DNA from: Mucilaginibacter sp.
GTDB taxonomy: Bacteria; Bacteroidota; Bacteroidia; Sphingobacteriales; Sphingobacteriaceae
Reading direction: 5' to 3'
NCBI RefSeq assembly: GCF_039921305.1
Contig: NZ_JBDSCA010000061.1
Span: forward strand, 11,153 to 75,152
DNA: 64,000 nucleotides
A program made the translations under genes and the position numbers. The first letter of the stretch is position 1; the number at the start of each line of letters is the position of its first letter. The notes under the pieces are model-generated. The model was not told where the DNA came from, did no database searches, and saw only the letters and a program-made list of their open reading frames with translations. Positions 5,139 through 32,755 of the stretch are shown here, one piece after another.

Positions 5139-5825
5139 TTATGTTGGATACCTGAATTCAAAGCCAGTGCCCCGGACAGTTTCCAGGCTGATGTTCGTAT
5201 CGGCAATTAAATACTTACGCAGTTTGCTGACAAAGACATCCAGGCTGCGGCCAGAGAAATAATCATCGCTCTTCCAGATATGCAGGAGCAGTTCATTGCG
5301 CTTGATCAGCCGGTCTCGGTTCGCGCAAAAATACAGTAGCAGCGTAGCCTCTTTTTCCGTCAGCCGGGTATAGCCCGTCTCATGGCGCAGCAGCAGGCTG
5401 GGATGGTCAAAGATATAGCTGCCGATGTGTAATAGTTCGGGAATTACCGTTTCAGGCGGCTCCGTGCGTTTTAAGATGTTCTTCAGCCGCAGGACCAGTT
5501 CTTCTACCTCGAAGGGCTTGACCACATAATCATCGGCACCCAGGCCGAGCCCTTTTAAGCGGTCTTCTTTCTGGTTGCGCGCGGTCAGGAAAATAAAAGG
5601 TATCCCCGGATGGGTCGCGGTGATCTTTTCGGCAAGCGTAAAACCATCCATTACCGGCATCATCACATCCAATACACAGATGTCCGCAGTGTCGGTTTTA
5701 AAAAAGGCCAGGGCATCTGCGCCGTTCGTTTTCCAGCTGACCCGGTAGCCTGCCAGTTCCAGGTATTGTTTGAGGATACCGCCAAAATCCGGATCATCTT
5801 CCGCTAACAGGATGTGTTTATTCAT
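5139..5825 (-). CDS. OmpR-family response regulator
   Basis: Receiver ILLAEDD, CVLDVMMPVMDG, FLTA, KPF; winged helix LTEKE..LL..IW..GRSLDVFVSKLRK..TVRGTGF. Confidence 0.95.
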   Translation of the reverse strand: MNKHILLAEDDPDFGGILKQYLELAGYRVSWKTNGADALAFFKTDTADICVLDVMMPVMDGFTLAEKITATHPGIPFIFLTARNQKEDRLKGLGLGADDYVVKPFEVEELVLRLKNILKRTEPPETVIPELLHIGSYIFDHPSLLLRHETGYTRLTEKEATLLLYFCANRDRLIKRNELLLHIWKSDDYFSGRSLDVFVSKLRKYLIADTNISLETVRGTGFEFRYPT

Positions 5826-7132: not shown

Positions 7133-7256
7133 GAATTCAAAGATAGCGAGGCCAGTTCATTTAAATGCAGGAAACGGCGGCATTAACATTCCGTTAACCA
7201 AGCATTAACCAAATCCCGTCTTTCGCTAACGGAAGTTTGCAGCAAATTAAAAGATC

Positions 7257-13695: not shown

Positions 13696-15984
13696 TCAAA
13701 AAAAAGAATAGCACCGGATAGCAAATATTGCAGCTGGAATTTGTTTAGACGGATGCTCAACAAAAAACGTTAATTTATCAACAATCACGGGCTGATCAAA
13801 GGTGATACGATTTATGGACTGATAATTATCTTTTTTTTCATAAATCAAATTCCCAACTCCATCTTTAATTTGATAATTACGAACGCAAAAAGGCATTACA
13901 TCTTCCGGATGCCCCATTAATACGGTTTCCATAGGATGATCGTAATCCGCATCAAAAAAAACATCTATTTTACTGATTTCTTTTTTATCAGGCCATTCTA
14001 ATACAATATGTGGCTTAGCATCACTTAATAACGCCACCCAGGCATTAGGCTGGTTTGTGGGCCTATATATCCCTGTTTTAATATTTGATACCTTGAACGT
14101 TTTTAAAGCAGGCTCCACCTTAATTGCCACATTATGCCCTTCAGGCCGGCGTTGCGGGCACCAAAATTCAAACTCTTCAACACCGATGTCCTCTGGTGGT
14201 GTTTGTTTCCCAAAATTAGAAACAGCTTTATTCACTAAATTAAACACTGAAAGAACCCCTGTTACACGCTGATGTGAAAAGTGAAGTTCTACGTCCGGAT
14301 TTTTATGGACCACAAAAAAAGCATACGAGGGTCTGGAAATGATACTTGTAAAATCAATTTGTAAGCAGTTACGTCCCGGATGAATAGATAATGTATGTTT
14401 CTCTAAGCTAATATCAGGCGTATAATTTTCATGCTTTCCGCTTATTCTAAGTTCAACTACCAATTTAGTATTGCTCTTCGATTCAGCGTGAAAAATAATT
14501 TGAGGCACTTTGCCAGTATTTAACGGGATCATTTGAGCCATCGAAATGTCGACCGGTTTTAAAATATCCGACGATAACTCATTTAATTGATATTCGCTGG
14601 AAGCGGATAGTTTTGCGATTTGTACCAAATCATTTGGATCGTTGTATTCCAAACCTGGAATATGTTGCCCTGTCTTTAATAATTCCCGTTGTAGCTGCGC
14701 TATCAAATTATGTTTTAAAATATCCCTCGGATATAAATCATTTTTTGCTGCCATGTATGCCGCCATTCCAACTGCCTGCCCTACATGCGCCGAGGTAGCC
14801 ATCACCCTGGTTGACGCAAAAGCCACGTGACTGGCACTTATGATACGTCCCGTAAGAAAAAGGTTTTTGATATTCTTGCTATATAAGCACCTATATGGAA
14901 TTTGATATATGCCTTTGCTATGCCATTGATTACAGCCTGGTTTTTCGCTAAACACACCATCAGCCGGGTGAAGATCAATTGACCAGCCACCATACGCTAC
15001 TGCATCATGATGAGTATGTTGCTCAATAATATCCTGTTGTTTAAGCATGTAGTCACCTTCAAATCTACGGCTCTCACGCTTACCCGGAATTGTGCCAACC
15101 CATTCAAGTGTCATGGTATCAGCTTCAGGAAACTTACCGGAGTTTTTAATATAGTCCCAGGCTCCATAAACAACTTTCCATAGTTCCCATTTAATTTTTT
15201 CGGTATCATGTACCGTATCTAACCTGCCGCCGTATTCAAGCCACCACAGTTTACAACCATGTTCTTTAGCGTTAAAGCTTTTAAAGCGCGGTATCTCAGC
15301 GGTAATATTTTTTAGTGCGAAATCAGGAGGAATAAACTTTACAGGTTTACCTGTATCTTTACTGTAGAAATACAAGCTGTGCCCTAACAATTCGCCATAT
15401 TCTGCTGTTGGAGCAAATTTTTCACCAAATTCTTCTTTACTCTCGGCGCCCATTCTGAAAGCAGCTCCTGATAAAAAACCAACAATACCATCTCCTGAAG
15501 CATCACAAAACAACGGCGCTTTAACAACATACTCAACTGAGTTTTGACTACAAAATGCACTTACTGAGGATATGGTTTCTGAATTTGATTTCTTTACCGC
15601 ATTTACCGCTGTATTCAATAACAAAGTTATGTTGGGTTCGCCAACTACCTTATCAAGCAATATTACGTCAAAAAGCAAAGGGTTACCTTCTTTGTTTTTG
15701 TATGTGTTTTCAACAAGTATTTCATCGATCACCCCACCCTCTCTGCTCCATCGGTTATTATTGCCCATATGAGACGTCGCACCTAATATCCACAAACGAA
15801 CTTCGCTGGATGAATTTCCACCAAGCACAGGCCGGTCTTGTATTAAAACAACCTTTAAACCCATACGCGCTGCTGTGATCGCCGCACAAACACCCGAAAG
15901 CCCTCCGCCAACGATAGCATAATCTGTATGGATATCTTCCCTGCGTAAACTTCTTTTTTCTTTATTGTCGTCCTTGAGCATCAA
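13696..15984 (-). CDS. FAD-dependent oxidoreductase (FAD_oxidored family) with C-terminal extension
   Basis: Dinucleotide fold IVGGGLSGVCAAITAAR..VLIQDRPVLGGNSSSE, FCDASGDG, GKRESRRFEGDY, IPYRCLYS..NLFLTGRIISASH; no signal peptide. Confidence 0.88.
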   Translation of the reverse strand: MMLKDDNKEKRSLRREDIHTDYAIVGGGLSGVCAAITAARMGLKVVLIQDRPVLGGNSSSEVRLWILGATSHMGNNNRWSREGGVIDEILVENTYKNKEGNPLLFDVILLDKVVGEPNITLLLNTAVNAVKKSNSETISSVSAFCSQNSVEYVVKAPLFCDASGDGIVGFLSGAAFRMGAESKEEFGEKFAPTAEYGELLGHSLYFYSKDTGKPVKFIPPDFALKNITAEIPRFKSFNAKEHGCKLWWLEYGGRLDTVHDTEKIKWELWKVVYGAWDYIKNSGKFPEADTMTLEWVGTIPGKRESRRFEGDYMLKQQDIIEQHTHHDAVAYGGWSIDLHPADGVFSEKPGCNQWHSKGIYQIPYRCLYSKNIKNLFLTGRIISASHVAFASTRVMATSAHVGQAVGMAAYMAAKNDLYPRDILKHNLIAQLQRELLKTGQHIPGLEYNDPNDLVQIAKLSASSEYQLNELSSDILKPVDISMAQMIPLNTGKVPQIIFHAESKSNTKLVVELRISGKHENYTPDISLEKHTLSIHPGRNCLQIDFTSIISRPSYAFFVVHKNPDVELHFSHQRVTGVLSVFNLVNKAVSNFGKQTPPEDIGVEEFEFWCPQRRPEGHNVAIKVEPALKTFKVSNIKTGIYRPTNQPNAWVALLSDAKPHIVLEWPDKKEISKIDVFFDADYDHPMETVLMGHPEDVMPFCVRNYQIKDGVGNLIYEKKDNYQSINRITFDQPVIVDKLTFFVEHPSKQIPAAIFAIRCYSFF

Positions 15985-16106: not shown

Positions 16107-19100
16107 TTAATTCTTCAATAACTTAGTGTAGAACACCTTTTCCGTTCCTTCACATTTTAGTTTCACTATGTAGATCCCTTCCATTTGATTACTGATGTTG
16201 ATGTGTATTGAAGTTGTTCCCTTAGGGAGATTTCGATCTACAAGAGTTTTACCGCGCACGTCAATTACTTTAATGTTGTTATTTGTAGCGCTAAAATTTG
16301 AAACATCAATATTAAAATTGCCATTTGATGGATTTGGATATATTTTCAAAACCTTTTGATCTTGCTTGTCTAACTTTAGATGATCCGTATTAAATGGTGC
16401 TTTTATTACGCTGACCGTATCTTTTTCAGTTTTCGAGGTACTCTGCATAGACCTTAGCGACCCCATGTCGGGAACGACTACGGTTAACTGATTAGAGTAA
16501 AGAGATTTGCAGGTAATGGCGTAATCAGCAACCCGGTAAATATATGTACCTGGTGTAGCGGTGGTATCGGTAAATGTGGTTGTACCGGCAGGTAATGTAG
16601 CCAACAAGGTAAAAGGTGAAGAACCTGATTTACGTTCCACAATGAAAGATGTTTCATTGCTCGAAAGGTCAAGCCATTGCAAAGCCACACTGCCCGAAGA
16701 TACCGATGTTGTGTCGAGCGATCCTGGAGCGATGGGATGTTCATCTGATACCTGGATGTAGCCCAATCCATCAAACACCGTTTTAGACGTTGATCCATTA
16801 GCCGAATCATCTAAATATACAGAAAACCCATTCACACCACTTACCCTACCCAATTTGGCTCTGAATAACCGATTCGATGTAGTTGTACCGGTGTAATCAG
16901 GCAATAATACCGCGCCTGCGGTTGTACGGTCAAATAGCTTAAAAGTGGTACTGTCTGCCATGCGCGCACGTGTTTTCCAGGTTTGGGTAGTTGGTGACAG
17001 GTAATATAAATAAACATCATATGTGTTGCATATATCCAATACGCTATCAACCGTCATTTTTATCACCGGCGCATTTTCGGTACCAGCGTTCGAGCGCATA
17101 AAATCTTTATCCACTGTTCCTGTGCCACTGGAGTTTACGAGTGTCCATTTATTGTCTGTAGTAGTTTCAACACTTGCAAAAGCTGTATCCGGCGAACAAT
17201 TAGCATATGTAGCATTCACAAATTTAAATTGATAGTTTGGCGGACTGGTAACCAGCGTTGTAAAACCATTATAATTTACCCAGCTGCTTTCGCTGCCGTA
17301 ACAGCTGTTGCGTACCGCGCATTCATAGTCAGTTGCGCTTTTTAAACTTAACAGCTTAACCGAATCAGCTTGAACATTGTAGGCATATTTCCAGGTTGTA
17401 TCGCTACCAACCGGCCTGTAACGTACATCACTGTTTATACCACCGGTAACACTCCAATGCAAAACAGCCGAAGTGTCTCTAATGGAGCTAATATGCAAAC
17501 TGTCGGGTGCGCCACAAGACCCGGGGGTAACGCAGGCAACGGAATCTACTCTAAACAGCACCACTGATTTGTAGGCAGGCAATGAGAATGTACCACAATA
17601 TGCCTGATTATAAACTGTTGTATATAAGCCAAATGGTAGCGTAATAGGTTGAGAAGACGATGTGTTATTATAATAAAACTTAATAACATTAGCTGGTATA
17701 GTACCCGAAGGGTATTTTTTTACAGCAGGCACGGTACCGTTAACTTGTACAACGCTGGCTTCCCATTCGTAAGGCGTGTAACGTTGAGTTTTAGGCCCAT
17801 CATCCGCCCGGTAATTAAAAGTGATTGCTTTATCATTAAAGGGGTTGATGATATTGTTGTATTTAAACAAGCCTAGTTGTGCGTATGAATAATCATCCGT
17901 ACTAATAGTTTTAAATACATCATGATCAACAGCTAATGAGTTTGAGACCAATATATTACCTGTAATTACAAAACCAGGGGCAGCAAGCGGGTGATAGATC
18001 TGCATTTCATTAAGCCCGCTTTGAAAGGAGGTATTGTTTGAAACCTCGATCCCGGTTTGTACCGAACCGATAAAAAGCCCCTCTCCGTTCACAAATGCAA
18101 CCGTATTGTTTTTTACTGTGACCCCTTGTGAAAAGTTATCGATGTAAATACCATTTGCCAAACTTGTTGCAGCCGGGGCTCCCAGCCTTTCGCCAAAACT
18201 ATTGGTTATGATATTTTCGTCGATCACGGTACCTGTAGTTACACCAATATTCCCATTAGTATATATACCACCATTATCTTCCAAATAGTAGCATGCACTA
18301 TCAATTACGTTGTGTTTTACCAGATTATTTATTCCCGCTGAGATAATACCGGAGTAGCCTGTTCTTGTGATCTTATTATCCTGTATTTGGCAATTAGGTG
18401 AGTTGCAATCTATACCGATAAACGTTTTGCTCTTCCCATTTGCTTCATTCCCGATATGACTTATTGTATTCCCTGTAAAAGCTATGTTATTACAAGTCGC
18501 GTTAGATATGATCCCACTCCAATTCACATCGGTTATTGTGTTATTGCTGAATGTACTGTAAGTAACTCCTGAGAAAGCGACTCCATCAGAACCCGAACGT
18601 GAAATATCTACATTATCAACTAACAAAGACGATCCATTTTTTAAAGAAAGGCAAACAAGGCGGGCATATTTTAGTTGGACATTTTTAACGGTAACATTAT
18701 TGGCATTCTCAATAGATAACGTAGTATCCGTACGTAAAAAAGTAACCGCTGTGCTTGGATTTGAAGTTGAATATAGCAGCACTTTACCAGTAGTAGCTGA
18801 ATAAGACCATTCGCCATCAAGGTCGATAGCATTAACGTTATTGACAAAGAAGTAACCATAACCGTCCCTCAACTGGTCAATTGTTGTAAGTGATGGTATT
18901 GTGATGGTACTGCCGCTATGTGTAGAAACCTTGGTTTTAACAAGACGGAACCTTTCTGCCCTAACTACAACATCTGATCCCGTCCAACTTGGTGTTCCCG
19001 TAAGTTGATTATCTGTAAATTGAGTTATCCCGCTGTGAGATTCAAAGTTCAAATAACCATTGTTTACGCTCTTGTTCGGATAACGGCTGATAGGCAGAGG

Positions 19101-19514
19101 ATTTTCACTTTTATACAACCCCCTGATATCAGCAGGTTTAGTTAATGAAGAAAAAGTGGTTTGCCAGATATTGCCGCTGTAAGTTGTCCAGGTGGTAGTG
19201 ATTTGTTCAGCACCTGTGATTATTGGTTTATTGCCACTTCCATAAGCATCGACAGTTACGCCGGAATATTTGACCCTCAATATCCCTGTAAATTTATCGC
19301 CTCTTTTCAGCAAAATACTATCCCCATTTGATAATGCGGTACCATTCACTTTTGCAAGGGTTTTCCACGCGGTTGCGGTGGAAGTACCTGCCAGGGCATC
19401 ATTCCCGGTTGCAGATACATAATAAGCATGTTGAGCTAATAATGCACTTGCGTTTAAGAAAAACACAGGCAAAAAAATGGCCCAACGAAGGTTAATTCGT
19501 AAAAAAGGTTTCAT
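16107..19514 (-). CDS. Secreted right-handed beta-helix protein with FN3 domains and a T9SS type A C-terminal sorting domain
   Basis: YYVSATGND..AWKTL.KVN..GDSILLKRGDKF, repeated beta-helix coils (DNGGIY, GIYIDNFS..NNT), two FN3-like segments, C-terminal IYPNPSNGNFNI..IDVRGK..GIYIVKL. Confidence 0.82.
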   Translation of the reverse strand: MKPFLRINLRWAIFLPVFFLNASALLAQHAYYVSATGNDALAGTSTATAWKTLAKVNGTALSNGDSILLKRGDKFTGILRVKYSGVTVDAYGSGNKPIITGAEQITTTWTTYSGNIWQTTFSSLTKPADIRGLYKSENPLPISRYPNKSVNNGYLNFESHSGITQFTDNQLTGTPSWTGSDVVVRAERFRLVKTKVSTHSGSTITIPSLTTIDQLRDGYGYFFVNNVNAIDLDGEWSYSATTGKVLLYSTSNPSTAVTFLRTDTTLSIENANNVTVKNVQLKYARLVCLSLKNGSSLLVDNVDISRSGSDGVAFSGVTYSTFSNNTITDVNWSGIISNATCNNIAFTGNTISHIGNEANGKSKTFIGIDCNSPNCQIQDNKITRTGYSGIISAGINNLVKHNVIDSACYYLEDNGGIYTNGNIGVTTGTVIDENIITNSFGERLGAPAATSLANGIYIDNFSQGVTVKNNTVAFVNGEGLFIGSVQTGIEVSNNTSFQSGLNEMQIYHPLAAPGFVITGNILVSNSLAVDHDVFKTISTDDYSYAQLGLFKYNNIINPFNDKAITFNYRADDGPKTQRYTPYEWEASVVQVNGTVPAVKKYPSGTIPANVIKFYYNNTSSSQPITLPFGLYTTVYNQAYCGTFSLPAYKSVVLFRVDSVACVTPGSCGAPDSLHISSIRDTSAVLHWSVTGGINSDVRYRPVGSDTTWKYAYNVQADSVKLLSLKSATDYECAVRNSCYGSESSWVNYNGFTTLVTSPPNYQFKFVNATYANCSPDTAFASVETTTDNKWTLVNSSGTGTVDKDFMRSNAGTENAPVIKMTVDSVLDICNTYDVYLYYLSPTTQTWKTRARMADSTTFKLFDRTTAGAVLLPDYTGTTTSNRLFRAKLGRVSGVNGFSVYLDDSANGSTSKTVFDGLGYIQVSDEHPIAPGSLDTTSVSSGSVALQWLDLSSNETSFIVERKSGSSPFTLLATLPAGTTTFTDTTATPGTYIYRVADYAITCKSLYSNQLTVVVPDMGSLRSMQSTSKTEKDTVSVIKAPFNTDHLKLDKQDQKVLKIYPNPSNGNFNIDVSNFSATNNNIKVIDVRGKTLVDRNLPKGTTSIHINISNQMEGIYIVKLKCEGTEKVFYTKLLKN

Positions 19515-19560: not shown

Positions 19561-20943
19561 TTAATCGTCTTTAATAAGCTTAAAAACGTGTTTTGTTGGT
19601 TTATTCGTAGTATATATTTGAGTTTGGATAGATAACAATTTGCTTTCTGTAGCAGGTTGCTTGGGCTTGTTAGTTAGGTAACCGTTAAATTGCGACTTGT
19701 AATAATCATAGTGACCACTGTTTTTTAGTTTTTCCAGGTTAACAGCAAGTAACTGTCTTATTTCTGTCGTGTCGTTAAGGTTTTTTAGTTCTCCGAGGTG
19801 ATTGTATTCAACAAATTTCAGACTTCGTAATAATCCCTCTGTTTTACGGTACAGCAAGCACAGATCCATTACCCTTATTGCTTGCTGGTATTGCGGTGTC
19901 TGTTTTTCTGTCGCGAGGTTTATACCCTCTTTTAACTGCGCGGCAGTATATTTACCCACAAGTATGCTATCTATTGATAGTTTATAATAACCAGCGGACA
20001 GGTCAACAACCTGTAAGATCTCCTTGTTAAGCTCGTCCGTAAATGGGACCCACGAAAGCGCTTTAACAGCATCGTCCCAAACAGGAAAGGGCAAGCTATA
20101 TTCAAGACAAGTAAATTCTACTGATCTATTATCGACCTTTTGTGATTCTATCTTACAATTAATACTTTTTCCCCTGCTTGTTTTTACACCCTTATCAACG
20201 ACTATTTTTGAAACAAATTTAGGCGCGCCTGTTTCCTTTAAAAACTGGTAAGCCATAACAAAGTGACCTGCGGGGCCAGGATGTATTCTATCCGGACCGA
20301 TAATGGTTGCGGTTGAATCTACTTTTTGTACGGATCGATTAACTTGTTTCATGATACTCCAGTAATCAACTAATTTAGTTTTATAGATCATGGAGAGATC
20401 TTGCATATGATCGCCACCAAATTTTAGCGCTTCGTTTACACCGATCGCATTTTCTGCCTTTATCGCCGCGGTCTGATCAAAAATGCTTGGTTTTTGCAGT
20501 ATCACTTTGCTCTTCGCAGCAAGTATTTTAACAATAGCTTCGCTATCCTCTTTATACTTAGCCATAGCCTGCGCCCACTTTTGAGGTAGATCAGGATCAG
20601 CTTTGGCAGCAATGGTATATAAATTACGTTTTACATCGTTCATACCGATCATTAAAACCGACCAGTTGGGTTTATGAATAAGTACATCGCTATCCATCCT
20701 TTTTAGTACACCGCCTGATACGTCGCCCGAGATGCCGCAGTTGTAAAACCACAACCGATCATTAGGAAAACGTGTTGCATAGTACAGGTAGACATAATTG
20801 TAAAACTGCCCATTGTTAGTAATGCTATCACCTATCCAACAAACGATGTCCCCATCTTTAAACAAAGGGCTTGATAATGTTTGTGCATAAGCAGCCAGAT
20901 TAAGCTGTAATATGAGCAGGGTTATCAGAAACTTCTTTTTCAT
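19561..20943 (-). CDS. SGNH/GDSL hydrolase (probable carbohydrate O-acetylesterase)
   Basis: Blocks WIGDSIT, NCGISGD, IGMND, DRIHP; signal peptide. Confidence 0.88.
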   Translation of the reverse strand: MKKKFLITLLILQLNLAAYAQTLSSPLFKDGDIVCWIGDSITNNGQFYNYVYLYYATRFPNDRLWFYNCGISGDVSGGVLKRMDSDVLIHKPNWSVLMIGMNDVKRNLYTIAAKADPDLPQKWAQAMAKYKEDSEAIVKILAAKSKVILQKPSIFDQTAAIKAENAIGVNEALKFGGDHMQDLSMIYKTKLVDYWSIMKQVNRSVQKVDSTATIIGPDRIHPGPAGHFVMAYQFLKETGAPKFVSKIVVDKGVKTSRGKSINCKIESQKVDNRSVEFTCLEYSLPFPVWDDAVKALSWVPFTDELNKEILQVVDLSAGYYKLSIDSILVGKYTAAQLKEGINLATEKQTPQYQQAIRVMDLCLLYRKTEGLLRSLKFVEYNHLGELKNLNDTTEIRQLLAVNLEKLKNSGHYDYYKSQFNGYLTNKPKQPATESKLLSIQTQIYTTNKPTKHVFKLIKDD

Positions 20944-20997: not shown

Positions 20998-22395
20998 TCA
21001 TTTTAAAAAAACCTCAATAACCGGCATTTCAGAAACGGGCCTTTGTACTGGCAAATGAAGTATTACATCATTACTTGCAGCTGTTTCGGTAGTGTGGCTA
21101 CCCGGTTTTATTTCTTCGTCAAAGCTAATTTCTGAACCATCTTGTAACAGTTGGGCAAATTTGATTTTGCCCTTATAATTCGGTAAATGCAAAGATTTAA
21201 ATGGCCACTCGATGATATGAATATATAACCTATTCAATTGCGGGTTATAGGTCAAAAAGCAGTTATCCGGTTTAGTAAATTCTTTAGGGGCCTGGGTACA
21301 TCCGTAAATTGCGCGGTTGTTATATTTCATCCAATTACCAATAGCTGCCAAACGTTCAATAGCCCGGCTATCAAACTCACCACGTGCTGTAGGACCCACA
21401 TTTAACAACAGGTTACCACCTTTGCTCACCGTTTCAACCAACATTGATACCAACTGATGCGCACTTTTCCAGGAATATTCATCACGATTATATCCCCACG
21501 AACCGGAAAAAGTCTGGCATGTCTCCCAAGGTACTTTCAGCCCGTTAAGCGTTGGCCACTCGACCGGCATAAACTGCTCCGGAGTTTTATAATCCCAGCC
21601 CCAATCTGTTTGACTTAGATCCAACCTGTCGTTCACGATGATCTGGGGCTGCAGCTTTCTAATCATCTTGAGTAGATTGGATGCATCCCAATCTTTGGCA
21701 CCCTTTCCGTTAGTACCCGGATAAGAATAATCTAGAAATAGTTCGTCAATTTTTCCGTACTGGGTTAGCAGTTCCGTTAACTGATCACGTAAATATTGGC
21801 GGTACTTACTCATATCGCGATTGCTGTTTAGAGCCAAAGCAGACTTATCTTCGCGAAGGGGGTGTAACTGGTCAATGGTAAAATCCGGATGGTGCCAATC
21901 GATCAATGAGTAATAAAACCCAATGCGTAATCCTTCCGCGCGACAAGCATCAACCAACTGTTTTAAAAGATCTCTTCTTGCAGGCGTATTCGTCGCCCTG
22001 TAATCGGTAACCTTACTATCCCACAAACAAAAACCCTCGTGGTGTTTTGTAGTGATTACAATATATTTCATTCCGGCGGCCTTGGCCTGTTTTGCCCATT
22101 GTACCGGATCGTATAAGTCAGGGTTAAAGGCATCAAAATACTTATTATAGTCTTTATCCGATATCATTTCCCTGCTCTTTACCCATTCATGCCGGGCGGG
22201 TACTGAATATAGCCCCCAATGAATAAACAAGCCGAAACGTGCATCCCGCCACCATTCCATTCGTTTATCCTTTTGCTCAAGGGTTTCCGTCGCCCATGTC
22301 GGACGAGTTTCTGCCTGTCCTATCACCTTCGGCTTAAAAGAGATAAGTAAGAGCATAAAACAAAGTAATTTCCTTTTCATGATGATATCTATCAC
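20998..22395 (-). CDS. GH29 alpha-L-fucosidase
   Basis: WWRDARFGLFIHWGLYS, FNPDLYDP..WA..AGMKY..TTKHHEGFCLWD, LFLD nucleophile region, PWETCQT..SWGY, NLLLNVGP. Confidence 0.93.
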   Translation of the reverse strand: MIDIIMKRKLLCFMLLLISFKPKVIGQAETRPTWATETLEQKDKRMEWWRDARFGLFIHWGLYSVPARHEWVKSREMISDKDYNKYFDAFNPDLYDPVQWAKQAKAAGMKYIVITTKHHEGFCLWDSKVTDYRATNTPARRDLLKQLVDACRAEGLRIGFYYSLIDWHHPDFTIDQLHPLREDKSALALNSNRDMSKYRQYLRDQLTELLTQYGKIDELFLDYSYPGTNGKGAKDWDASNLLKMIRKLQPQIIVNDRLDLSQTDWGWDYKTPEQFMPVEWPTLNGLKVPWETCQTFSGSWGYNRDEYSWKSAHQLVSMLVETVSKGGNLLLNVGPTARGEFDSRAIERLAAIGNWMKYNNRAIYGCTQAPKEFTKPDNCFLTYNPQLNRLYIHIIEWPFKSLHLPNYKGKIKFAQLLQDGSEISFDEEIKPGSHTTETAASNDVILHLPVQRPVSEMPVIEVFLK

Positions 22396-23675
22396 TTTAT
22401 TGTTTGTATCGCTTCGTGCATCGTTTCTCTTTGTATCTTATTAACTAAAGTTGACGCGATACCGATCTGCTTTTGCGCATCGGTGTAGTTGGAATGTATA
22501 TGGCTCACCATATTAGCAATTTGAGAAGCCGGTGTCTCATCTATCTCAAATATCCAATCATTAAGGCCAATATCCCTCCACATCTGTCCTTTCCTCGTGT
22601 CTGTAGGTTGTTTTAAATATATTGCCGGTACTTTCTCAGTGAACGCAATTATGGGTGAATGCATTTCATAGCTGATCAGCACCCTTGCTTTGGCATATAT
22701 AGAACGTGCTTCGTCAGGCAACCAAAACGAATCCCGCCATACCACATTTTTTTTTATCTCATCTGGCAACGGGTCAACCAAAACTTCTTTTGATAAGGCA
22801 ACTTGTTGGGTAACTTCCGCACATGCCAAAACTTTTAGGCCTGTATCTTTTACCCATTTTATCATCACCTCGCGTAGTTTGGCCGCATCTATTTCTTTGT
22901 GTTGTAGCGAAATGGCATACTTTCTCTTTTCTTCTACGGTTGGCTCAACACCACGCATCTGCCAGTATGGGGTATATCGTAACCTGGGTATCACGCAAAT
23001 AAATTTACCTCTTTTTAAACCATTAGCGGTTAAGTAAGCTTCGGCCTTTTGTTCATTTTGTAATTTGAGGGCAAAAGTTGCATCCAGGCCTAATTGCTGT
23101 ATCGGGCATTTCAAATTGAGCGAACGTAAATATTTTAACGATTCAGAATCTCTGCAGAAAAAGAACGAAGCATGATCTATCAATTCTTTTAAGGGCTCAT
23201 CTACCTCGTCAAGCGAAACGCCATATACTCCAAATGGTTTTTTGGTATTGTTCCACCAGGCCCTTACATCTTTATAAGCAGCTACATATGGGCCCGAACC
23301 ATGAACCATTAGGTCACATTCGGCAAATGCTTTTTGCAGATCCGTGGTCGCCGGTTTGCCAGAATCATCCAGCCGGCCTTGTATAATATTTAACTTAGGG
23401 AACGATCTCCTCATTAATGCATCTACTTCCACGTCAACGCTAACAGGCCATAATATAATTTCAGCTTCTGGCAAATAGATGTTAAACAATTCGATCAGAC
23501 CGAAGCTATGGCTAATGTCGCCAATGTTAACTACCTGCCATGATGAGCGCAATAATATTTTCGGTTTCTTTTGTGAACCCTTTCCCATAGCTATTGCATT
23601 AATAACAGGCATCATTACAGATGCGGCTGTCAGAAAACCTGTTTGTTTTAAAAAGTCCCTTCGTTGTTGATCCAT
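22392..23675 (-). CDS. Polysaccharide pyruvyl transferase family protein with a twin-arginine signal
   Basis: QRRDFLKQ Tat-like N-terminus; NIGDISH, VHGSGP, FFFCRDSESL, DATF, MHSPIIA motifs typical of the family. Confidence 0.78.
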   Translation of the reverse strand: MDQQRRDFLKQTGFLTAASVMMPVINAIAMGKGSQKKPKILLRSSWQVVNIGDISHSFGLIELFNIYLPEAEIILWPVSVDVEVDALMRRSFPKLNIIQGRLDDSGKPATTDLQKAFAECDLMVHGSGPYVAAYKDVRAWWNNTKKPFGVYGVSLDEVDEPLKELIDHASFFFCRDSESLKYLRSLNLKCPIQQLGLDATFALKLQNEQKAEAYLTANGLKRGKFICVIPRLRYTPYWQMRGVEPTVEEKRKYAISLQHKEIDAAKLREVMIKWVKDTGLKVLACAEVTQQVALSKEVLVDPLPDEIKKNVVWRDSFWLPDEARSIYAKARVLISYEMHSPIIAFTEKVPAIYLKQPTDTRKGQMWRDIGLNDWIFEIDETPASQIANMVSHIHSNYTDAQKQIGIASTLVNKIQRETMHEAIQTIK

Positions 23676-23693
23676 AATTATATATCGTAGATA

Positions 23694-25568
23694 TTACCAG
23701 GCAGATAATGATTGAAATACCGGTACAGTGTTATCGTTTTTTTCTTTAAATAGTACAGTAATGGCAACGTTCCCAATTGCTTTAAAATGAATGACGAGTC
23801 TTTTTATACCTTCATTTGGTGTATTGCCTTTTGATAGGGGTTCGTTTAGTATAGGTATGGCGTCAATAATTTCGAAGGCTGCTTTAGTTGCTGGTTTTAA
23901 GATCTCGACCTTTAATTCATCCACTCCCATTTTTAGTATAGCTGATCTTTTGTCATCCGACAAAGTAATTATCGCAGGGGTATGGATCTGCCAATAAAGA
24001 TCGAGTGGTTTATCAGTCGTTATCTCGTCTTGTATCAAAACCTGTTTTTTATCGATCATAGCGATCCCACGTTTTACAGATCTCCCATTCGGTGCATAAG
24101 CTTCGGTCAAATCCATAATACCGAATGAATTGTTATTATCACTTTTGAACTTTTTTATAAACGTTGAGGCGGCAGCATTTTGATTCGCATCTTGCCCGAC
24201 TTTTACCACCAACGTATTGTGGCCTTCTGTGCTCAACCGATAATAGCTATAGCGTTGAACCGATTTGTTTTTGCCCCCGTTAAAGTATCCCGGTAAATTA
24301 TAAGTATCAGGCCCCAGATCAATTACCCAACGCTTCGCATTTTTTTCCAGAACGAAAGTACCCAGATCCAAATGCCCATGATTAACACCGTTTTCACCGG
24401 CTTTGAATCCAACAAACCAGGCTTTTTCATCGTTCCAGCTACTTCTTAATGAAGCTACCTCTGCAGAGCGAAAATATTGGTCAAGTGGCAATTCAGCGGC
24501 TTTCCGTAATTTCTTGTCAGAATACCATAACATCTCTACCGCCGTTGAATGATCGGTATATTTTTGCTGATAGGCTGCTATTTCCGGGTCATTAAATTTA
24601 TTGGCCAACCACAAAAACTCAGGCATGGTAACAATTCTCAATGGCGCATCCGAGTAATTGAATGTTTGTGCCGTAGCTCCGCTCATCGCCATAACGAATG
24701 AACCTGTTTTTGAAAAGCCTTGTATAGTGCTTAAACCAAAATCCGTTCCTAAAGCCGACTCCAAACAAGCGATAGCGGCCACGTTATAACGCATGGCGAA
24801 AGCAAGATAGGTAGGACCCTCAAACCACGCTCCATCGGGACCATAATGCTTCATAGCCGCCGGAAGTCGCTTTATTGCATTCTTGATCAAGGTATCAGCC
24901 AATTGTGGTTCTTCATCGGCTATAGCTAAAGCGCCTATGATCATACTGCCATTACAAACCTGGTTCCAGTTATGTTCAGCTTTCGCCCAATCAAAACCGG
25001 GGCCTTTGCCTTGATAATACAATAGACCGCCCTCAAGTGCTTTATCTTTTATAGCTGTTTTTATAATTTGTTTTTGAGGATCGGTCCACACGTCATAAAG
25101 CCAATCGTAGGCTATAGCGAAGGCCTGGTCCATTTCTGCAGTGCCCAAAAAATGTTCAATATCCCAATCGGGGAATTTGGCAGCATTGTCTAACTCAAGC
25201 CATAACCTGTCCGCATACTTTTTTTTGCCGGTAAGCCTGTACATCATACTTAAAGTGTAGCTACGATCCAATACGCTACGGCTTGTATTGAGCAAATAAT
25301 TACTCGGGATCATGGTGTATTTATTGAGCGGTTCCGTAAGCATTTTATCTGCTTTAAGCCGCAATGTATTTTCTGCTTTTATCAAAAACTCATTACCGGG
25401 AATACGTTTTTTCAACTGCTCAAAATCAGCTAAAGATGATACCAACAAGCGGGGATGTCCCTTTTTTAAAGTAGCGACCGGGTTATCTGGTACAGTTACC
25501 TGTGCATTGGCCTTCAAACAAGTACAATAGACACAAAGTACTAGTACAAAGAAAGATCTATAGCTCAT
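23694..25568 (-). CDS. Heparinase II/III-like polysaccharide lyase
   Basis: HPRLL, WD..HFLGTAE, HNWNQVC, EGPTY, FNYSDA, HGHLDLGTF, GHNTL; signal peptide. Confidence 0.85.
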   Translation of the reverse strand: MSYRSFFVLVLCVYCTCLKANAQVTVPDNPVATLKKGHPRLLVSSLADFEQLKKRIPGNEFLIKAENTLRLKADKMLTEPLNKYTMIPSNYLLNTSRSVLDRSYTLSMMYRLTGKKKYADRLWLELDNAAKFPDWDIEHFLGTAEMDQAFAIAYDWLYDVWTDPQKQIIKTAIKDKALEGGLLYYQGKGPGFDWAKAEHNWNQVCNGSMIIGALAIADEEPQLADTLIKNAIKRLPAAMKHYGPDGAWFEGPTYLAFAMRYNVAAIACLESALGTDFGLSTIQGFSKTGSFVMAMSGATAQTFNYSDAPLRIVTMPEFLWLANKFNDPEIAAYQQKYTDHSTAVEMLWYSDKKLRKAAELPLDQYFRSAEVASLRSSWNDEKAWFVGFKAGENGVNHGHLDLGTFVLEKNAKRWVIDLGPDTYNLPGYFNGGKNKSVQRYSYYRLSTEGHNTLVVKVGQDANQNAAASTFIKKFKSDNNNSFGIMDLTEAYAPNGRSVKRGIAMIDKKQVLIQDEITTDKPLDLYWQIHTPAIITLSDDKRSAILKMGVDELKVEILKPATKAAFEIIDAIPILNEPLSKGNTPNEGIKRLVIHFKAIGNVAITVLFKEKNDNTVPVFQSLSAW

Positions 25569-25590: not shown

Positions 25591-26772
25591 TTATTGTTTT
25601 TTTTCGATCGCTGCTAAACGTAACAAAGCCTCCAGATAATAATAATCAGCATACACCAATGGCTTATCAACTTCTTTCCCTAACGTTTTGGCACCGACGC
25701 TATGCTTCAATATAAAATAATTATTTTCACCTAAACCCGCTTTATATTGTGGTGAGGATAGAGATCGAATTATCTTTTTTGCTGACTGTACATAATAAAC
25801 TCGTTTTGTTGGCACGTAGCGTTGCAATTCTAATAAGGCGGATGCTATAACGGCAGCGGCCGAAGCGTCGCGTTCTTCATTAGGAATATTGGGAGCCAAA
25901 TAATCCCAATAGGGTATTTTATCTTTCGGGAGATTCGGGTTATTTAAAATATAAGATGCTGCCTTATTTGCAACCTCCAGGTATTTTTCCTTCCCTGTTT
26001 CGCGGTACATTACCGTAAAACCGTACAAAGCCCATGCCTGCCCCCTGGCCCATGCTGACTCATCCTGAAAGCCCTGATGATTTTTTTTTGCTAAAACCAT
26101 ACCGCTATCACTATAACAAACCACATGATAGCAGCTACCATCTGACCGGAAATGGTTTTGTAAAGTTTTATCTGCGTGAGAGATACAAATTCCTTTATAA
26201 TTATTGGTCGTACCGTGCTTTGATGCCCACATCAAAAATTCGAGGTTCATCATATTATCTATAATAACCGGGAACCGATACTTACCAAAAGTATCCCACG
26301 ATCTGATAAGTCCGACATTTGCATTATATCGTGTAGCTAATGACTTTGCGCCATTTTTTAGTATGTTTTTATAATTTTTGTTTTTAGTGAGTTTGTAACC
26401 GTTACCATAAGAACAGTATAACATAAACCCAAGATCGTGGGTACTGATATTATACTGTTCTTTTTCAAGCATGGCCGTCCAATGTTGTGCCGCCGTTTTC
26501 CATTTAAGGTTCCCTGTGTATTCATATAGCTCCCATAGTATTCCTGGAAAAAAGCCGCTGCACCACCATGAAGAAGGCATATCTTTACGAGTGCCGTTCT
26601 CATTTACAGAAAACGGGAATTGGGTTAGATCGGAATGAGCATTTAACAAGAGTGTTATTTGCTTTTCAGCAAAACCCATTTCCTTTTGTATGTTAATGTT
26701 TTGCGCACCCACATTGCCATTCAGCAATAACAGCTGCCCCAAAAACATCAATATTACTACTCTATATAGCAT
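25591..26772 (-). CDS. GH88 unsaturated glucuronyl hydrolase
   Basis: WWCSGFFPG.LW, THDLGF and IIDNMMNL (both catalytic Asp present), WARGQAWA.YG, RDASAAA, YADYYYLEAL. Confidence 0.92.
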   Translation of the reverse strand: MLYRVVILMFLGQLLLLNGNVGAQNINIQKEMGFAEKQITLLLNAHSDLTQFPFSVNENGTRKDMPSSWWCSGFFPGILWELYEYTGNLKWKTAAQHWTAMLEKEQYNISTHDLGFMLYCSYGNGYKLTKNKNYKNILKNGAKSLATRYNANVGLIRSWDTFGKYRFPVIIDNMMNLEFLMWASKHGTTNNYKGICISHADKTLQNHFRSDGSCYHVVCYSDSGMVLAKKNHQGFQDESAWARGQAWALYGFTVMYRETGKEKYLEVANKAASYILNNPNLPKDKIPYWDYLAPNIPNEERDASAAAVIASALLELQRYVPTKRVYYVQSAKKIIRSLSSPQYKAGLGENNYFILKHSVGAKTLGKEVDKPLVYADYYYLEALLRLAAIEKKQ

Positions 26773-26773
26773 A

Positions 26774-27667
26774 CTATGGTGTTACAACGATATCAAATTC
26801 TTTAATGATACTTTTTTGATCATCAACACTGTTATTAAACCCAACAAATGTTACATGATAGGTACCTGGCTTGGTGTATACGTAACTGTAATTTGTTAAC
26901 GCGTCACTTCCGATATTTTGAATCGATCGGCTGAGATCCGGAGCTATCTTGTTTAGCGTTAAAGGTCTTGTTATTAGCCAGTCTTCGTTATCATCCGAGT
27001 TCGCCACCCCGCCATTTATGGTTATTTGGGTAATTGTCGCCGTATTGGGTATAACCCAAATAGCTGCCGGGTTTTTTATATTAATTGACGACCAGGATGC
27101 GTCCGCAATGGTTGCGATAGGCGCCACCGTACCATCTGGCAATATATTATTAACTAAAAGTGATTTGATGATCCATGTTCTTTGAGCCAGGGTAGCACTT
27201 TTAGTACCAAGATATTTAAAGGCAAGCCAAACCGGTTGTCCGTTATTCTTAAAATCACTCAGATCAATATTGCCCGAGCCAAGTGCCGTACCTGTTGATA
27301 ATACTGAGCGCCCTGTAATATCGGTCCACGTGGCATGTACGACATGCGAGGAGTCGACGACGGAAAGATCTGTAGAGACCATTACCATCAACGAATTGTC
27401 TTGCGCACCGCCACCGCGTGTACTGTTAAAAGAGAACTGCGGGGTTCCGTCTGCTGTTAGCCTGGTTCTGTTCGCATAAGTAAAACCCTGTTCTCCTGAA
27501 TAAAATAAGATGTTACCCGCATTACCAGAGATGTTAAACCTCACAGTATCATTTATCTTATAGGTTAATTTCACGGTTTGAACATCAAATAATGGCGAAG
27601 CCACCTCCAATTTTTTACAACCTCCGATGATCAACGAGACCAATAAAAGCACATATATATTTTTCAT
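26774..27667 (-). CDS. PUL surface lipoprotein (DUF5017-like, C-terminal PKD-like segment)
   Basis: Lipobox IGGC; FYSGEQG, NEDWLIT, YVYTKPGTYHVTFVGFN; immediately follows susD. Confidence 0.65.
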   Translation of the reverse strand: MKNIYVLLLVSLIIGGCKKLEVASPLFDVQTVKLTYKINDTVRFNISGNAGNILFYSGEQGFTYANRTRLTADGTPQFSFNSTRGGGAQDNSLMVMVSTDLSVVDSSHVVHATWTDITGRSVLSTGTALGSGNIDLSDFKNNGQPVWLAFKYLGTKSATLAQRTWIIKSLLVNNILPDGTVAPIATIADASWSSINIKNPAAIWVIPNTATITQITINGGVANSDDNEDWLITRPLTLNKIAPDLSRSIQNIGSDALTNYSYVYTKPGTYHVTFVGFNNSVDDQKSIIKEFDIVVTP

Positions 27668-27686: not shown

Positions 27687-29528
27687 TTAATAGCCCGGAT
27701 TTTGAACCAAAGCTTTGTTTAAAGACATTTCATGAATAGGTATCGGAAAATAAATATTGCGCGAAGAAAGCCTTGTCGCCGGTGTGGTGATAACCGTTGC
27801 CGTTCCTCCGTTTGCTGAAGCGTAAGCTAAAAAGTCTTTGATATCACCAACATAATTCCCCCACCTGATCAAATCGTTGCGCCTAAAGGCCTCGAAACAT
27901 AATTCTCTTAAACGCTCGTCTTTAATGGCCTGGCGTAAACTTTCCTTACTAGCGGTCTGTGTTGCAGAAAGATCGGCATCTGTAGATTTAGATATGGTTG
28001 CCGTGGCAGCGGCACCTGTGCCTGCTGTTGCGGTAAATGTTATAGTTGGAGCCGAAGTATAATACGGCCCTGCAACTGTCAATGTTCCCGGATTAATGAT
28101 ACTGATACTTGTTATCTTTCCGGCCGCCACGGTAGCGGTGGCAGTAGCGCCGGAACCTCCTCCGCCAACGATATTTACGGTTGGAGCTGTTGTGTATCCC
28201 GAACCCGCATTAGTGATCGCAATATTGCGAACTACGTTACCATATAAGATGCCGTACCCTCGCTGTCTTACCTGGTTTACGAACGGATAAGCTTTGGTAG
28301 GCCCGTTTAATTCATTCTCGGCCTCGGCCATCATAAGTAAAATGTCAGAATACCTAATTACAGCGTAATTTTCATTGGTATAGTTCTTATCCTTGGTGGC
28401 TGTTGTTTCATATTCTCTCCTCCATTTACCGCTATTCATGATCCATGTGTTGGTAACCGGTGTGTAAGTAGCAGTTGTCGTTTCACTCCAGGTGTAATTA
28501 GCGCAATTCCAATCTCTCCTTATGTCGAACGATGTTTTGTTTGGCGATGCTGTGTTTAAGGTATTCAACTCATATGCATCGTATAATTTTTTTGTCGCGT
28601 TTAAATACCCGGCGCTAAAGCCTTTGGTTTCGTCAACACAACGGATACCACAATAGCGGCCGGTATAGGTAGTCCCCAGGTTTTTACCTGATACCAATCC
28701 TTCAAATTCAATTTCGAATAAATTTTCTTTAATATCATATTTATCCTGCGCGTAGTTGATAAATACCTGTTTATAATCAGGATTTAAAGCATGCTCTTTA
28801 GTATCGATAATTTTTTGGCACCATGATATAACCTCCGGATAACGGGATACATCATATAGAGGAAAACCAGCCATATAAAGATTTACACGGGCAAGTAAGC
28901 CCATTACCGCTGTGTGATTAGCCTTACCACTATAGCCTAAAGAAGTAATAGTTTGAGTTTTCAATAAGGTTTCGGCAGATGTGAGATCGTTAATAATTTG
29001 CAGATATACCTGTTTCATTGGGGCACGTGCTATATTAACATCAGTTATCGAGCCTGTGGGATCGATAACAAGCGGCACATCGCCATAGTTGCTCACCAGC
29101 ATAAAATAAAAGTAAGACCTTAAAAACAATGTTTCTCCCCTGATCACATCCTTTTGTGATTGTGTTGCGGTTACGCCGTCAATACTTGCAAGTAATAAGT
29201 TAGCATTACCTATCCCGGCATACATTTGCTGCCAAAAATTAGAAACATTTACGTTTTCGGCTCCAAACAAGAAAGATGGAGTATCCTCAGTTGCCCTGCC
29301 GTAAGACTCATCGCTATTTGTATTAAAGTTATAGAGATAATTATTACCGAACGCGCCAATATTCCCCATAGTGGCGTATACGCCAATTAAGGCGTTTTGT
29401 AGCTGGTAGGGAGTTTTATAATAAGCGGCCGGCGTGATAAAATCAGTTGGGTTGGTATCAAGCATTTTGTTGCACGCTGTTGCGGTTAAAATCAGCGTTG
29501 TTAAAAGAGTGTATTTTAATATTTTCAT
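27687..29528 (-). CDS. susD: SusD/RagB-family lipoprotein with a Gly/Thr-rich insertion
   Basis: Lipobox TAC; GETLFLRSYFYF.LV..YGDVP, IRYSDILLMMAEA.NE, ERLRELCFEAFRRNDLIRWG, FPIP..QNPGY. Confidence 0.93.
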   Translation of the reverse strand: MKILKYTLLTTLILTATACNKMLDTNPTDFITPAAYYKTPYQLQNALIGVYATMGNIGAFGNNYLYNFNTNSDESYGRATEDTPSFLFGAENVNVSNFWQQMYAGIGNANLLLASIDGVTATQSQKDVIRGETLFLRSYFYFMLVSNYGDVPLVIDPTGSITDVNIARAPMKQVYLQIINDLTSAETLLKTQTITSLGYSGKANHTAVMGLLARVNLYMAGFPLYDVSRYPEVISWCQKIIDTKEHALNPDYKQVFINYAQDKYDIKENLFEIEFEGLVSGKNLGTTYTGRYCGIRCVDETKGFSAGYLNATKKLYDAYELNTLNTASPNKTSFDIRRDWNCANYTWSETTTATYTPVTNTWIMNSGKWRREYETTATKDKNYTNENYAVIRYSDILLMMAEAENELNGPTKAYPFVNQVRQRGYGILYGNVVRNIAITNAGSGYTTAPTVNIVGGGGSGATATATVAAGKITSISIINPGTLTVAGPYYTSAPTITFTATAGTGAAATATISKSTDADLSATQTASKESLRQAIKDERLRELCFEAFRRNDLIRWGNYVGDIKDFLAYASANGGTATVITTPATRLSSRNIYFPIPIHEMSLNKALVQNPGY

Positions 29529-32500: not shown

Positions 32501-32755
32501 CTGATCTGAAGATGCGGAAATATCGCTGTTTTTAAGTTTGACGGTTACCCCTGGCAGTGATGAACCATTGACCGCGTCAGTGACTTTCCCTGTGATTACC
32601 ACAGATGCTTTTACTTTAGCTTGAAAGATACCGCCAAAAGAGCTGGTTGATATTGTACAGAAAAAGATCAGAAGCGTGCTCATTGATCGCAGCCGAACAC
32701 GATATAACCACGGATAGTAATTTGTTTGGGTTAGTAAAGTAATAGGTATACTCAT
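29540..32755 (-). CDS. susC: SusC/RagA-family TonB-dependent transporter
   Basis: [73 protein letters not shown]. Confidence 0.96.
   Translation of the reverse strand: [1071 protein letters not shown]

Follow-up and report, generated by a model that had tools for sequence, protein, structure and literature searches.

What would a member of a biosynthetic enzyme family do outside the cytoplasm, within an operon for polysaccharide degradation? This question is raised by a gene of a soil Mucilaginibacter sp. (RefSeq assembly GCF_039921305.1) located in a window of 64,000 nucleotides, which is the whole stretch of DNA analysed here (contig NZ_JBDSCA010000061.1, positions 11,153 to 75,152 of the forward strand) and to which all coordinates refer. 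The gene encodes a protein of the PS_pyruv_trans family (PF04230), that is, the family of the phosphoenolpyruvate (PEP)-dependent ketal-pyruvyltransferases, and lies in a polysaccharide utilization locus (PUL). Pyruvate ketals are present on xanthan, colanic acid, succinoglycan, many Klebsiella and Escherichia coli capsules, agars and carrageenans, as well as on secondary cell-wall polymers of Gram-positive bacteria and on N-glycans of fission yeast; such a ketal stops exo-glycosidases. The leading hypothesis, to which we attach moderate confidence, is that the protein and the clade of homologues around it are periplasmic pyruvate-ketal hydrolases ("depyruvylases"). The gene and its predicted signal peptide for twin-arginine translocation (Tat) are the following:

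22392..23675, minus strand: PS_pyruv_trans-family open reading frame (ORF), candidate pyruvate-ketal hydrolase; 427 aa, single ORF, predicted to be Tat-exported
23583..23675, minus strand: twin-arginine signal peptide, residues 1-31; RR at 23658-23663, QRRDFLK at 23646-23666, A-I-A just before residue 30

The original prediction on this DNA, made from its letters and translations, had placed the ORF at exactly these coordinates; the strand is minus and there are 427 codons. It had also assigned the product to the pyruvyltransferase family, and rightly so: the Pfam hidden Markov model for PF04230 matches with 64.5 bits against a gathering cut-off of 25.3 (E = 1.9e-17), over residues 50-354 and model positions 1-276 of 280, and hhalign comparison of the clade profile with that of canonical members gives a probability of 98.8% (E = 1.4e-16, 327 columns). 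The score against the CsaB equivalog TIGR03609 (NCBIfam) is far below its cut-off (25.9 vs 213.1 bits). The AlphaFold 2 (AF2) model of the product (pLDDT, the predicted local distance difference test, 91.2) has a GT-B-type fold with two Rossmann domains. Foldseek searches of the PDB with this model returned, as top matches, GT-B glycosyltransferases and UDP-GlcNAc 2-epimerases (E ~1e-9 to 1e-10, template-modelling (TM) score ~0.5-0.6), with the ketal-pyruvyltransferase Pvg1p not among the top 50, and hence they speak to fold class only, with no finer discrimination. In the genome (99.97% complete), the gene is the sole PF04230 match, and the Pfam search found no biosynthetic paralogue.

The N-terminus of the ORF product is MDQQRRDFLKQTGFLTAASVMMPVINAIAMG. 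Six of the seven positions of the Tat consensus S/T-R-R-x-F-L-K are matched by its motif QRRDFLK, behind which lie a hydrophobic stretch and an A-I-A (A-x-A) site; a lipobox Cys is absent. These features, together with the recurrence of the motif in homologues, bear out the RRDFLK Tat-like signal of the original prediction. The genome encodes Tat machinery (one TatC and five TatA/B/E proteins), and the clade member P0107 passes the Pfam TAT_signal model PF10518 (26.8 bits vs 22.7). Within the operon, the twin-arginine motif is unique to the PS_pyruv_trans gene, the other secreted proteins having Sec or lipoprotein signals. A word-indexed protein search retrieved 4199 relatives; among the top 120 (47-76% identical), 100 have the RR motif, while most of the 20 that lack it have a late start, within the conserved mature N-terminus or shortly ahead of it, and three are RK variants. 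By eye, and counting RRxW variants, the Tat motif is found in about 73 of 78 homologues from the fetched loci. Judged from these comparisons, the Tat motif is not a chance match and predicted export is conserved in the clade; the predicted localisation is that of a soluble periplasmic enzyme, exported folded via Tat.

The canonical transferases with which the clade can be compared are WcaK of E. coli, CsaB of Paenibacillus alvei and Pvg1p of Schizosaccharomyces pombe (PDB 5AX7), which belong to the same Pfam family and share the GT-B fold. In Pvg1p, D106 contacts the acceptor hydroxyl and the D106A variant is inactive, while R217 and R337 contact PEP in a model (PMC4872226). In CsaB, docking placed PEP at R148 (equivalent to R217), R306 (R337), H308 (H339) and K328 (K361); the R148K/Q and H308A/R variants are inactive and K328R has a reduced kcat (PMC10435577). 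Sequence searches of PDB chains, with either the protein or a 26-sequence profile, retrieved no pyruvyltransferase, and none was retrieved with WcaK either; in consequence, Pvg1p and CsaB were compared by way of WcaK, of canonical members from genomes and of the residue equivalences in the literature. Among canonical proteins, WcaK gives the best BLAST match (E = 1.7e-4, ~20% identity over 409 aa). With WcaK as seed, a homologue search yielded near-identical enterobacterial WcaKs only and was replaced by a Pfam-model search of 61 Sphingobacteriales genomes. The MAFFT alignment comprised the clade, E. coli WcaK and 18 canonical PF04230 proteins from related genomes. Four motifs are of concern here:

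23517..23528, minus strand: N50-I-G-D53, equivalent to Pvg1p N103..D106 with the acceptor-hydroxyl Asp; retained and invariant in the clade (MAFFT, hhalign)
23139..23153, minus strand: R175-D-S-E-S179; R175 is equivalent to Pvg1p R217 and CsaB R148, a PEP ligand; retained and invariant
22656..22667, minus strand: E337-M-H339-S340, which replaces the canonical R-x-H (Pvg1p R337-L-H339, CsaB R306-x-H308); His retained
22590..22601, minus strand: D359-T-R-K362; K362 invariant and probably equivalent to Pvg1p K361 and CsaB K328, a PEP ligand

The clade has in common with WcaK, CsaB and Pvg1p (i) the Asp of N-x-G-D; (ii) the Arg of R-D/E-x-x-S; (iii) the His of R-x-H, invariant in the clade as H339 (Pvg1p H339, CsaB H308); and (iv) probably the downstream Lys. 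It departs from them in having Glu for the second PEP-binding Arg: where WcaK reads T-R-L-H-S the protein reads S-Y-E-M-H-S, and both MAFFT and hhalign (E on R, H on H) place E337 on the canonical Arg. An hhalign comparison with the single WcaK sequence was weak (62%), with the key motif ambiguous by one column, an ambiguity that MAFFT and the profile-profile alignment resolved. Across phyla, 67 of the 78 homologues from the loci have Glu at this position and 3 have Asp; among 75 diverse representatives, Glu occurs 57 times and Asp 10 times. Of the 20 canonical sequences, 16 have Arg or Lys here. About 60 positions are invariant across phyla, including the full set of polar cleft residues. Since the invariant polar residues stand, in the AF2 model, at the C-terminal ends of beta-strands of both Rossmann-like halves, where the active sites of GT-B enzymes lie, the active site appears to be maintained. 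In a separate, canonical subgroup of cytoplasmic PF04230 proteins (at loci L087, L089 and L099), the motifs read N-Y-G-Q/S, without the Asp, and N-[SF]-F-H-G, without the Arg of R-x-H; this subgroup may carry out a chemistry other than classical PEP-dependent ketal transfer.

Because the active site appears maintained while an Arg has given way to a carboxylate, and because the protein, as predicted, is exported to a compartment with no known PEP supply, lacks biosynthetic partners and is linked or fused to lyases, esterases and carbohydrate-binding modules (CBMs), as described below, the simplest account is that it would recognise a pyruvyl group on a sugar diol without binding PEP. According to the proposed mechanism, the clade would descend from PEP-dependent ketal-pyruvyltransferases, having kept the GT-B fold, the sugar-hydroxyl Asp D53 and three of the four pyruvyl/PEP residues (R175, H339 and probably K362). 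Oligosaccharides of an acidic, acetylated bacterial exopolysaccharide (EPS) would come in through the adjacent SusC/SusD pair, and the enzyme would strip them of pyruvate ketals (1-carboxyethylidene groups), whether 4,6-linked or other. The remaining basic residues would bind the ketal carboxylate, and E337, situated where transferases hold the anionic donor, would be the general acid/base which protonates a ketal oxygen and/or activates water; ring opening would lead to an oxocarbenium or hemiketal and, from there, to free pyruvate and an unblocked diol. The presumed direction of the reaction is thus opposite to that of the transferases, with water, not phosphate, as partner. Ketal removal would free the terminal sugar for exo-enzymes of the same locus, namely the PL35-like polysaccharide lyase (PL) with the glycoside hydrolase (GH) GH88, GH29 and GH3, and would parallel the removal of acetyl groups by the GDSL esterase.

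A plain reversal of the transferase reaction, i.e., reverse phosphorolysis of the ketal with phosphate to give PEP, was considered and ruled out by thermodynamics, as it is uphill by about 50 kJ/mol while hydrolysis is permitted, and by the loss of the anion-binding Arg. By analogy only, a switch of comparable evolutionary logic, but with a different fold and bond type, separates GH65 maltose phosphorylase from GH15 glucoamylase: a catalytic carboxylate takes the place of the phosphate site, and one scaffold alternates between phosphate- and water-linked chemistry.

With regard to the extent of the clade, scanning one genome per species gave at least 577 loci, distributed among Bacteroidota, Verrucomicrobiota, Acidobacteriota, Planctomycetota, Lentisphaerota, Spirochaetales and Abditibacteriaceae, and an exhaustive library contained 197 representatives (50% identity) at E <= 1e-30 and 503 at E <= 1e-10. 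The original prediction had proposed a phylogeny of PUL-linked versus biosynthetic members. In the tree, one branch (support of 99 in the Shimodaira-Hasegawa-like approximate likelihood ratio test, SH-aLRT) splits 75 clade members from 17 canonical PF04230 proteins, although the groups had been preset by similarity to the query and, hence, the split mainly shows the coherence of the clade. Branches within the clade are short (median 0.23), whereas canonical ones are very long. The distribution is patchy: the Tat-type gene occurs in 2 of the 61 sampled Sphingobacteriales genomes, and the closest relative by identity (61-63%) comes from a metagenome-assembled genome (MAG) of Mangrovibacterium, not from the same genus. 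Both observations are consistent with mobility of the PUL.

Rare members of the clade lack a signal and keep the Glu motif (L014:3201-4355 and L016:9995-11155, from Victivallaceae MAGs, and L073:6480-7739, from Chthoniobacter). Alongside the one at L016 are a LacI regulator, a xylose-isomerase-like TIM barrel protein (sugar-isomerase-like) and a GH36, neighbours which suggest a cytoplasmic version of the same catabolic step.

The gene is part of a PUL, with an adjacent SusC/SusD pair and genes for carbohydrate-active enzymes (CAZymes) on the same strand, at gaps of -4 to 54 bp. In the order of transcription, and except for the PS_pyruv_trans gene between the lyase and the fucosidase, the operon consists of:

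32796..35333, minus strand: GH3 with PA14 insert, first gene of the operon (Pfam)
29540..32755, minus strand: SusC-like TonB-dependent transporter (Pfam)
27687..29528, minus strand: SusD-like lipoprotein (Pfam)
26774..27667, minus strand: DUF5017 lipoprotein, likely a surface glycan-binding protein (Pfam; lipobox N-terminus)
25591..26772, minus strand: GH88 unsaturated glucuronyl hydrolase with Sec signal (Pfam GH88; PDB 3wiw at 7.9e-108)
23694..25568, minus strand: heparinase II/III-type polysaccharide lyase, PL35-like, with Sec signal (Pfam Hepar_II_III_C and DUF4962)
20998..22395, minus strand: GH29 alpha-L-fucosidase (Pfam, 2.5e-97), downstream of the PS_pyruv_trans gene; likely true start at ATG 22378-22380
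19561..20943, minus strand: GDSL/SGNH esterase, probable O-acetyl esterase (Pfam)
16107..19514, minus strand: beta-helix protein of 1135 aa with fn3 and a C-terminal sorting domain of the type IX secretion system (T9SS), candidate secreted endo-depolymerase (Pfam, NCBIfam)

The lyase, whose nearest structures are of PL35 (PDB 8khw, 1.9e-78; 9o3q, "PL35 chondroitinase", 2.5e-73), is separated from the PS_pyruv_trans gene by 18 nt. The start of the GH29 gene is ambiguous (22378-22397): a GTG overlaps the upstream TGA (GTGA), while an ATG lies 15 nt further downstream. From the ATG, the product has a canonical signal peptide (MKRKLLCFMLLL...; MKRKLLCF...) and the spacer to the PS_pyruv_trans gene is 11 nt; the ATG is the more likely start. 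Therefore, of what the original prediction had said about this neighbourhood, the position between a lyase and a fucosidase agrees with the Pfam and PDB matches, and the absence of glycosyltransferase and export genes is matched by a Pfam search that found no glycosyltransferase, flippase (Wzx), polymerase (Wzy) or export gene within about 10 kb on either side; the 4-bp overlap with GH29 exists if the GTG is used and disappears with the ATG, which has the better signal peptide, the linkage being tight either way.

Three further genes flank the operon:

35567..36592, plus strand: divergent regulator with GntR-type helix-turn-helix (HTH) and periplasmic-binding fold (Pfam)
13696..15984, minus strand: PF12831 FAD_oxidored protein of 762 aa, cytoplasmic, no signal peptide, after a gap of 122 bp
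11964..13637, minus strand: SSF sodium:solute symporter, downstream of the FAD_oxidored gene

The last two may form a downstream unit for uptake and catabolism, their membership of the operon being uncertain given the 122-bp gap; PF12831 proteins also adjoin clade members in two loci outside Bacteroidota. The beta-helix protein is the only T9SS cargo in the PUL, and in Desertivirga and Telluribacter homologues of it (48% and 38% identity, respectively) adjoin the clade gene. PDB searches with the beta-helix and FAD_oxidored proteins gave no informative match.

The substrate of the PUL is probably an acetylated bacterial EPS which contains fucose, glucose and glucuronate. Colanic acid fits GH29, GH3, the lyase with GH88, the esterase and a depyruvylase, and is offered as a suggestion only: a beta-galactosidase is absent from the locus, and no colanic-acid PUL is described in the literature searched.

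The surveyed neighbourhoods of other clade members are catabolic as well, whereas the transferases occur in biosynthetic loci, the wca cluster being the positive example of such a context for wcaK. With X for the clade gene, the following arrangements can be mentioned: (i) SusC-SusD-DUF5017-(lyase-like)-GH29-GDSL-X in Pedobacter heparinus; (ii) SusC-SusD-GH106-X-GH36 in Mangrovibacterium; (iii) GH88 ... BcGHD-X-MFS-X in Hymenobacter; (iv) PL8-X, with PL8 directly upstream, in Pedobacter arcticus; (v) SusD-GH88-GH5-X-X-GH27 in Niabella; and (vi) alginate-lyase-like-GH63-like-X-beta-helix-SusC-SusD in Desertivirga. The smallest arrangement is a minimal PUL on a JGI metagenome contig (Ga0209906_100001, L109:1-9305), which reads extracytoplasmic function (ECF) sigma-FecR anti-sigma-SusC-SusD-X-X: its SusC has an STN domain, and the candidate enzymes of the locus are limited to a tandem pair of Tat-type PS_pyruv_trans paralogues. 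In the Pfam tally of 96 Bacteroidota neighbours, the leading families are SusD (10), SusC-type (~10) and GDSL (7), with PL8, GH5 and melibiase next; in that of 157 neighbours from other phyla, TonB-dependent receptors lead (Plug domain, 13), and GDSL, beta-helix, FAD_oxidored and GH42 are present. No biosynthetic family appears in the top-25 Pfam list of either set.

In addition, a secreted family of ~640 aa, which has no Pfam match, accompanies the clade gene in eight Bacteroidota loci. Its members are:

L002:5209-7134
L007:6649-8583
L006:9605-11548 and 5171-9376
L003:13448-15376
L013:8061-9989
L008:14949-16850
L009:15849-17765

It is a distant homologue of heparinase II/III and PL35-like lyases (hhalign 97.1%, E = 5.7e-11) in which the block H-x-H-x-D-x-G is kept, and is probably an undescribed lyase subfamily. 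Given this homology, lyases of the heparinase II/III superfamily are the most constant partner of the clade.

The association extends to domain fusions, recorded in P0244, P0265, P0279, P0286, P0298 and P0353. In the representative library, three fusions join the clade domain to Hepar_II_III_C lyase domains, which may precede or follow it; P0279, with DUF4962 and Hepar_II_III_C, has the same architecture as the lyase neighbour at 23694-25568. Other fusions involve Golvesin_C with CBM6 and a GDSL esterase (P0286), Golvesin_C alone (P0298) and a GH106 fragment (P0353). Where checked, the fusions to lyase, GDSL and Golvesin_C modules carry a Sec signal together with the acidic motif of the clade; the GH106-fragment fusion shows neither motif. 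From the Sec-signalled fusions, export appears to be constant without a strict need for Tat, an argument against a cofactor that has to be loaded in the cytoplasm. An obligatory Tat-loaded cofactor was thus rejected as unlikely.

Four other explanations have to be weighed against that of a pyruvate-ketal hydrolase. First, the protein could be a periplasmic catabolic PUL enzyme that acts on another group, be it a lactyl (1-carboxyethyl) ether or a hydrolytic or eliminative step on an acidic oligosaccharide, with the old pyruvyl pocket serving only as a site of carboxylate recognition. Context, export and fusions fit any decoration-removing or accessory catabolic enzyme equally well, and the tightest partners are uronate-specific lyases and GH88, so that recognition of a uronate carboxylate is conceivable. 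Nevertheless, we regard this explanation as unlikely: with the Asp and three of four pyruvyl/PEP-site residues kept, the simplest functional change is one that retains the same chemical group, and one experimental hint, presented below, ties such a protein to pyruvylated EPS and depyruvylated products (PMC13750104).

Second, loss of one PEP ligand, as well as those loci in which the gene stands beside regulators or transporters with few enzymes, could point to a non-catalytic periplasmic protein that binds or senses pyruvylated or acidic oligosaccharides and, for example, hands them to a transporter or regulator. Such a role is quite improbable in view of the ~60 positions that are invariant across phyla and of a Glu which is kept rather than drifting. 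Furthermore, a binding domain would be superfluous next to the separate CBMs and the catalytic lyase or esterase modules to which the clade domain is fused, and the minimal PUL of L109 would be left without any enzyme.

Third, the ketal could be moved from an imported oligosaccharide to an acceptor other than water, by a pyruvyl "transketalase". In its favour, the ancestral transferases possess an acceptor site, and D53, the ligand of the acceptor hydroxyl, is kept; however, no catabolic benefit is apparent, no candidate acceptor or partner was found, and hydrolysis, as the limiting case of this chemistry, would provide carbon that the cell can use. This reading is very improbable. Accordingly, where the original prediction had left it open whether pyruvate is removed or transferred, removal is supported as the leading hypothesis and transfer is less likely than hydrolysis.

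Finally, it is barely credible that the protein is still a PEP-dependent ketal-pyruvyltransferase which decorates the surface polysaccharide of its own cell after export, since membership of PF04230, the presence of most catalytic motifs and the precedent of lumenal, PEP-dependent Pvg1p (PMC4872226) are set against the lack of a known PEP source in the bacterial periplasm and of an evident PEP exporter in the locus, the change of one PEP-binding Arg to Glu across the clade, surveyed loci with no glycosyltransferase, flippase or polymerase neighbours, and a tightly spaced SusC/SusD operon with fusions to lyases, esterases and CBMs elsewhere. As for the argument in the original prediction that PEP is not expected in the periplasm, it agrees with a locus in which no PEP transporter is apparent, but it is not universal for compartments outside the cytoplasm: Pvg1p works in the Golgi lumen, with PEP supplied by the transporters Pet1p and Pet2p (PMC4872226). 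In this respect, the clade product is predicted to be Tat-exported, whereas the known transferases are cytoplasmic or Golgi-anchored.

The pyruvate-ketal hydrolase that we favour can also be placed among the systems which degrade or trim decorated glycans. Enzymes that degrade pyruvylated glycans are poorly known (PMC6090015). The PL8 xanthan lyase and the Bacillus beta-galactosidase that releases pyruvylated galactose (PvGal) (PMC6090015) are likewise tied to the degradation of pyruvylated glycans, but the bonds they split are glycosidic and the ketal stays in place, whereas the clade would remove the ketal itself; PL8, PL35-like and heparinase II/III-like lyases are the commonest partners of the clade. 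By analogy, the frequent lyase partner recalls xanthan lyase, which frees a terminal pyruvylated sugar from uronic acid, and this is put forward as a suggestion; the xanthan literature leaves open the fate of the pyruvylated mannose that the lyase releases. The carbohydrate esterases and sulfatases of PULs resemble the clade in their modular distribution among sets of glycosidases and in their periplasmic location, and clade members are often beside, or fused to, GDSL esterases. These decoration-removing enzymes differ in having an unrelated fold, while the ketal bond proposed for the clade has no known dedicated enzyme. Indeed, literature searches on depyruvylase and depyruvylation, and on pyruvyltransferases together with PUL or SusD, found no characterised depyruvylating enzyme, in keeping with the remark in the original prediction that no well-characterised enzyme with this activity was known to it.

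Relevant experimental data come from Luteolibacter sp. VK1 grown on pyruvylated EPS: a Tat-predicted "pyruvyltransferase", VK1_2210, was detected only under this condition, and depyruvylated oligosaccharides accumulate in the culture supernatant (PMC13750104, 2026). The authors call the enzymatic basis of depyruvylation unclear and raise VK1_2210 as a possible candidate (PMC13750104). Verrucomicrobiota, the phylum of Luteolibacter, do hold clade members, including one in an Akkermansiaceae MAG. By analogy, this result independently supports the idea of a depyruvylase, with the caution imposed by the cell lysate.

Several points weigh against the proposal of a ketal hydrolase. To begin with, the Luteolibacter lysate gave no depyruvylated products (PMC13750104), at odds with the expectation for a simple periplasmic hydrolase; besides, VK1_2210 is alike in its pyruvyltransferase annotation and predicted Tat signal, that is, compared by description only, and its link to depyruvylation is a proteomic correlation. 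As regards the active site, the PEP site of the transferases derives from docking into an apo crystal structure and into an AlphaFold model, with limited mutagenesis, and R337/R306 is without a successful mutational test (PMC4872226; PMC10435577). The location of E337 in the cleft follows from homology only, and the equivalence of K362 is ambiguous by 2-3 residues, since MAFFT pairs K362, and hhalign D359, with the canonical Lys. With respect to context, the partner enzymes vary between loci, some loci in other phyla are without recognisable CAZymes, contexts outside Bacteroidota being looser, and the fusions are known from metagenome gene calls only. In any case, catalytic activity is inferred for all members of the clade, and so are the substrate group, hydrolysis as such, the role of E337, the identity of the polysaccharide and the pyruvylation of the target glycan.

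What is new here is the switch from Arg to Glu in the active site, the domain fusions, and the minimal PUL that consists of SusC/SusD and two copies of the gene, which would be an ideal minimal system for the function of the clade. On a broader scale, we consider it slightly more probable than improbable that the clade is the first enzyme family dedicated to the removal of pyruvate ketals from glycans, that it arose from PEP-dependent pyruvyltransferases through export and the change of an Arg to a catalytic Glu, and that it habitually works with heparinase II/III-type and PL8 lyases on acidic bacterial and algal polysaccharides in multiple phyla (Bacteroidota, Verrucomicrobiota, Acidobacteriota, Planctomycetota and others).

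The microbial removal of pyruvate ketals is an acknowledged gap, for which the clade provides a concrete and widespread candidate with a specific residue, E337. If the proposal is true, (i) the clade would be a new class of carbohydrate-active enzymes and the first depyruvylase family; (ii) it would explain a missing step in the turnover of EPS in soil, in aquatic environments and, possibly, in the gut; (iii) it would supply a mild enzymatic tool to tailor xanthan and other industrial gums or to analyse pyruvylated glycans; and (iv) it would represent a clean case of a transferase turned into a hydrolase by a single substitution in the pocket.

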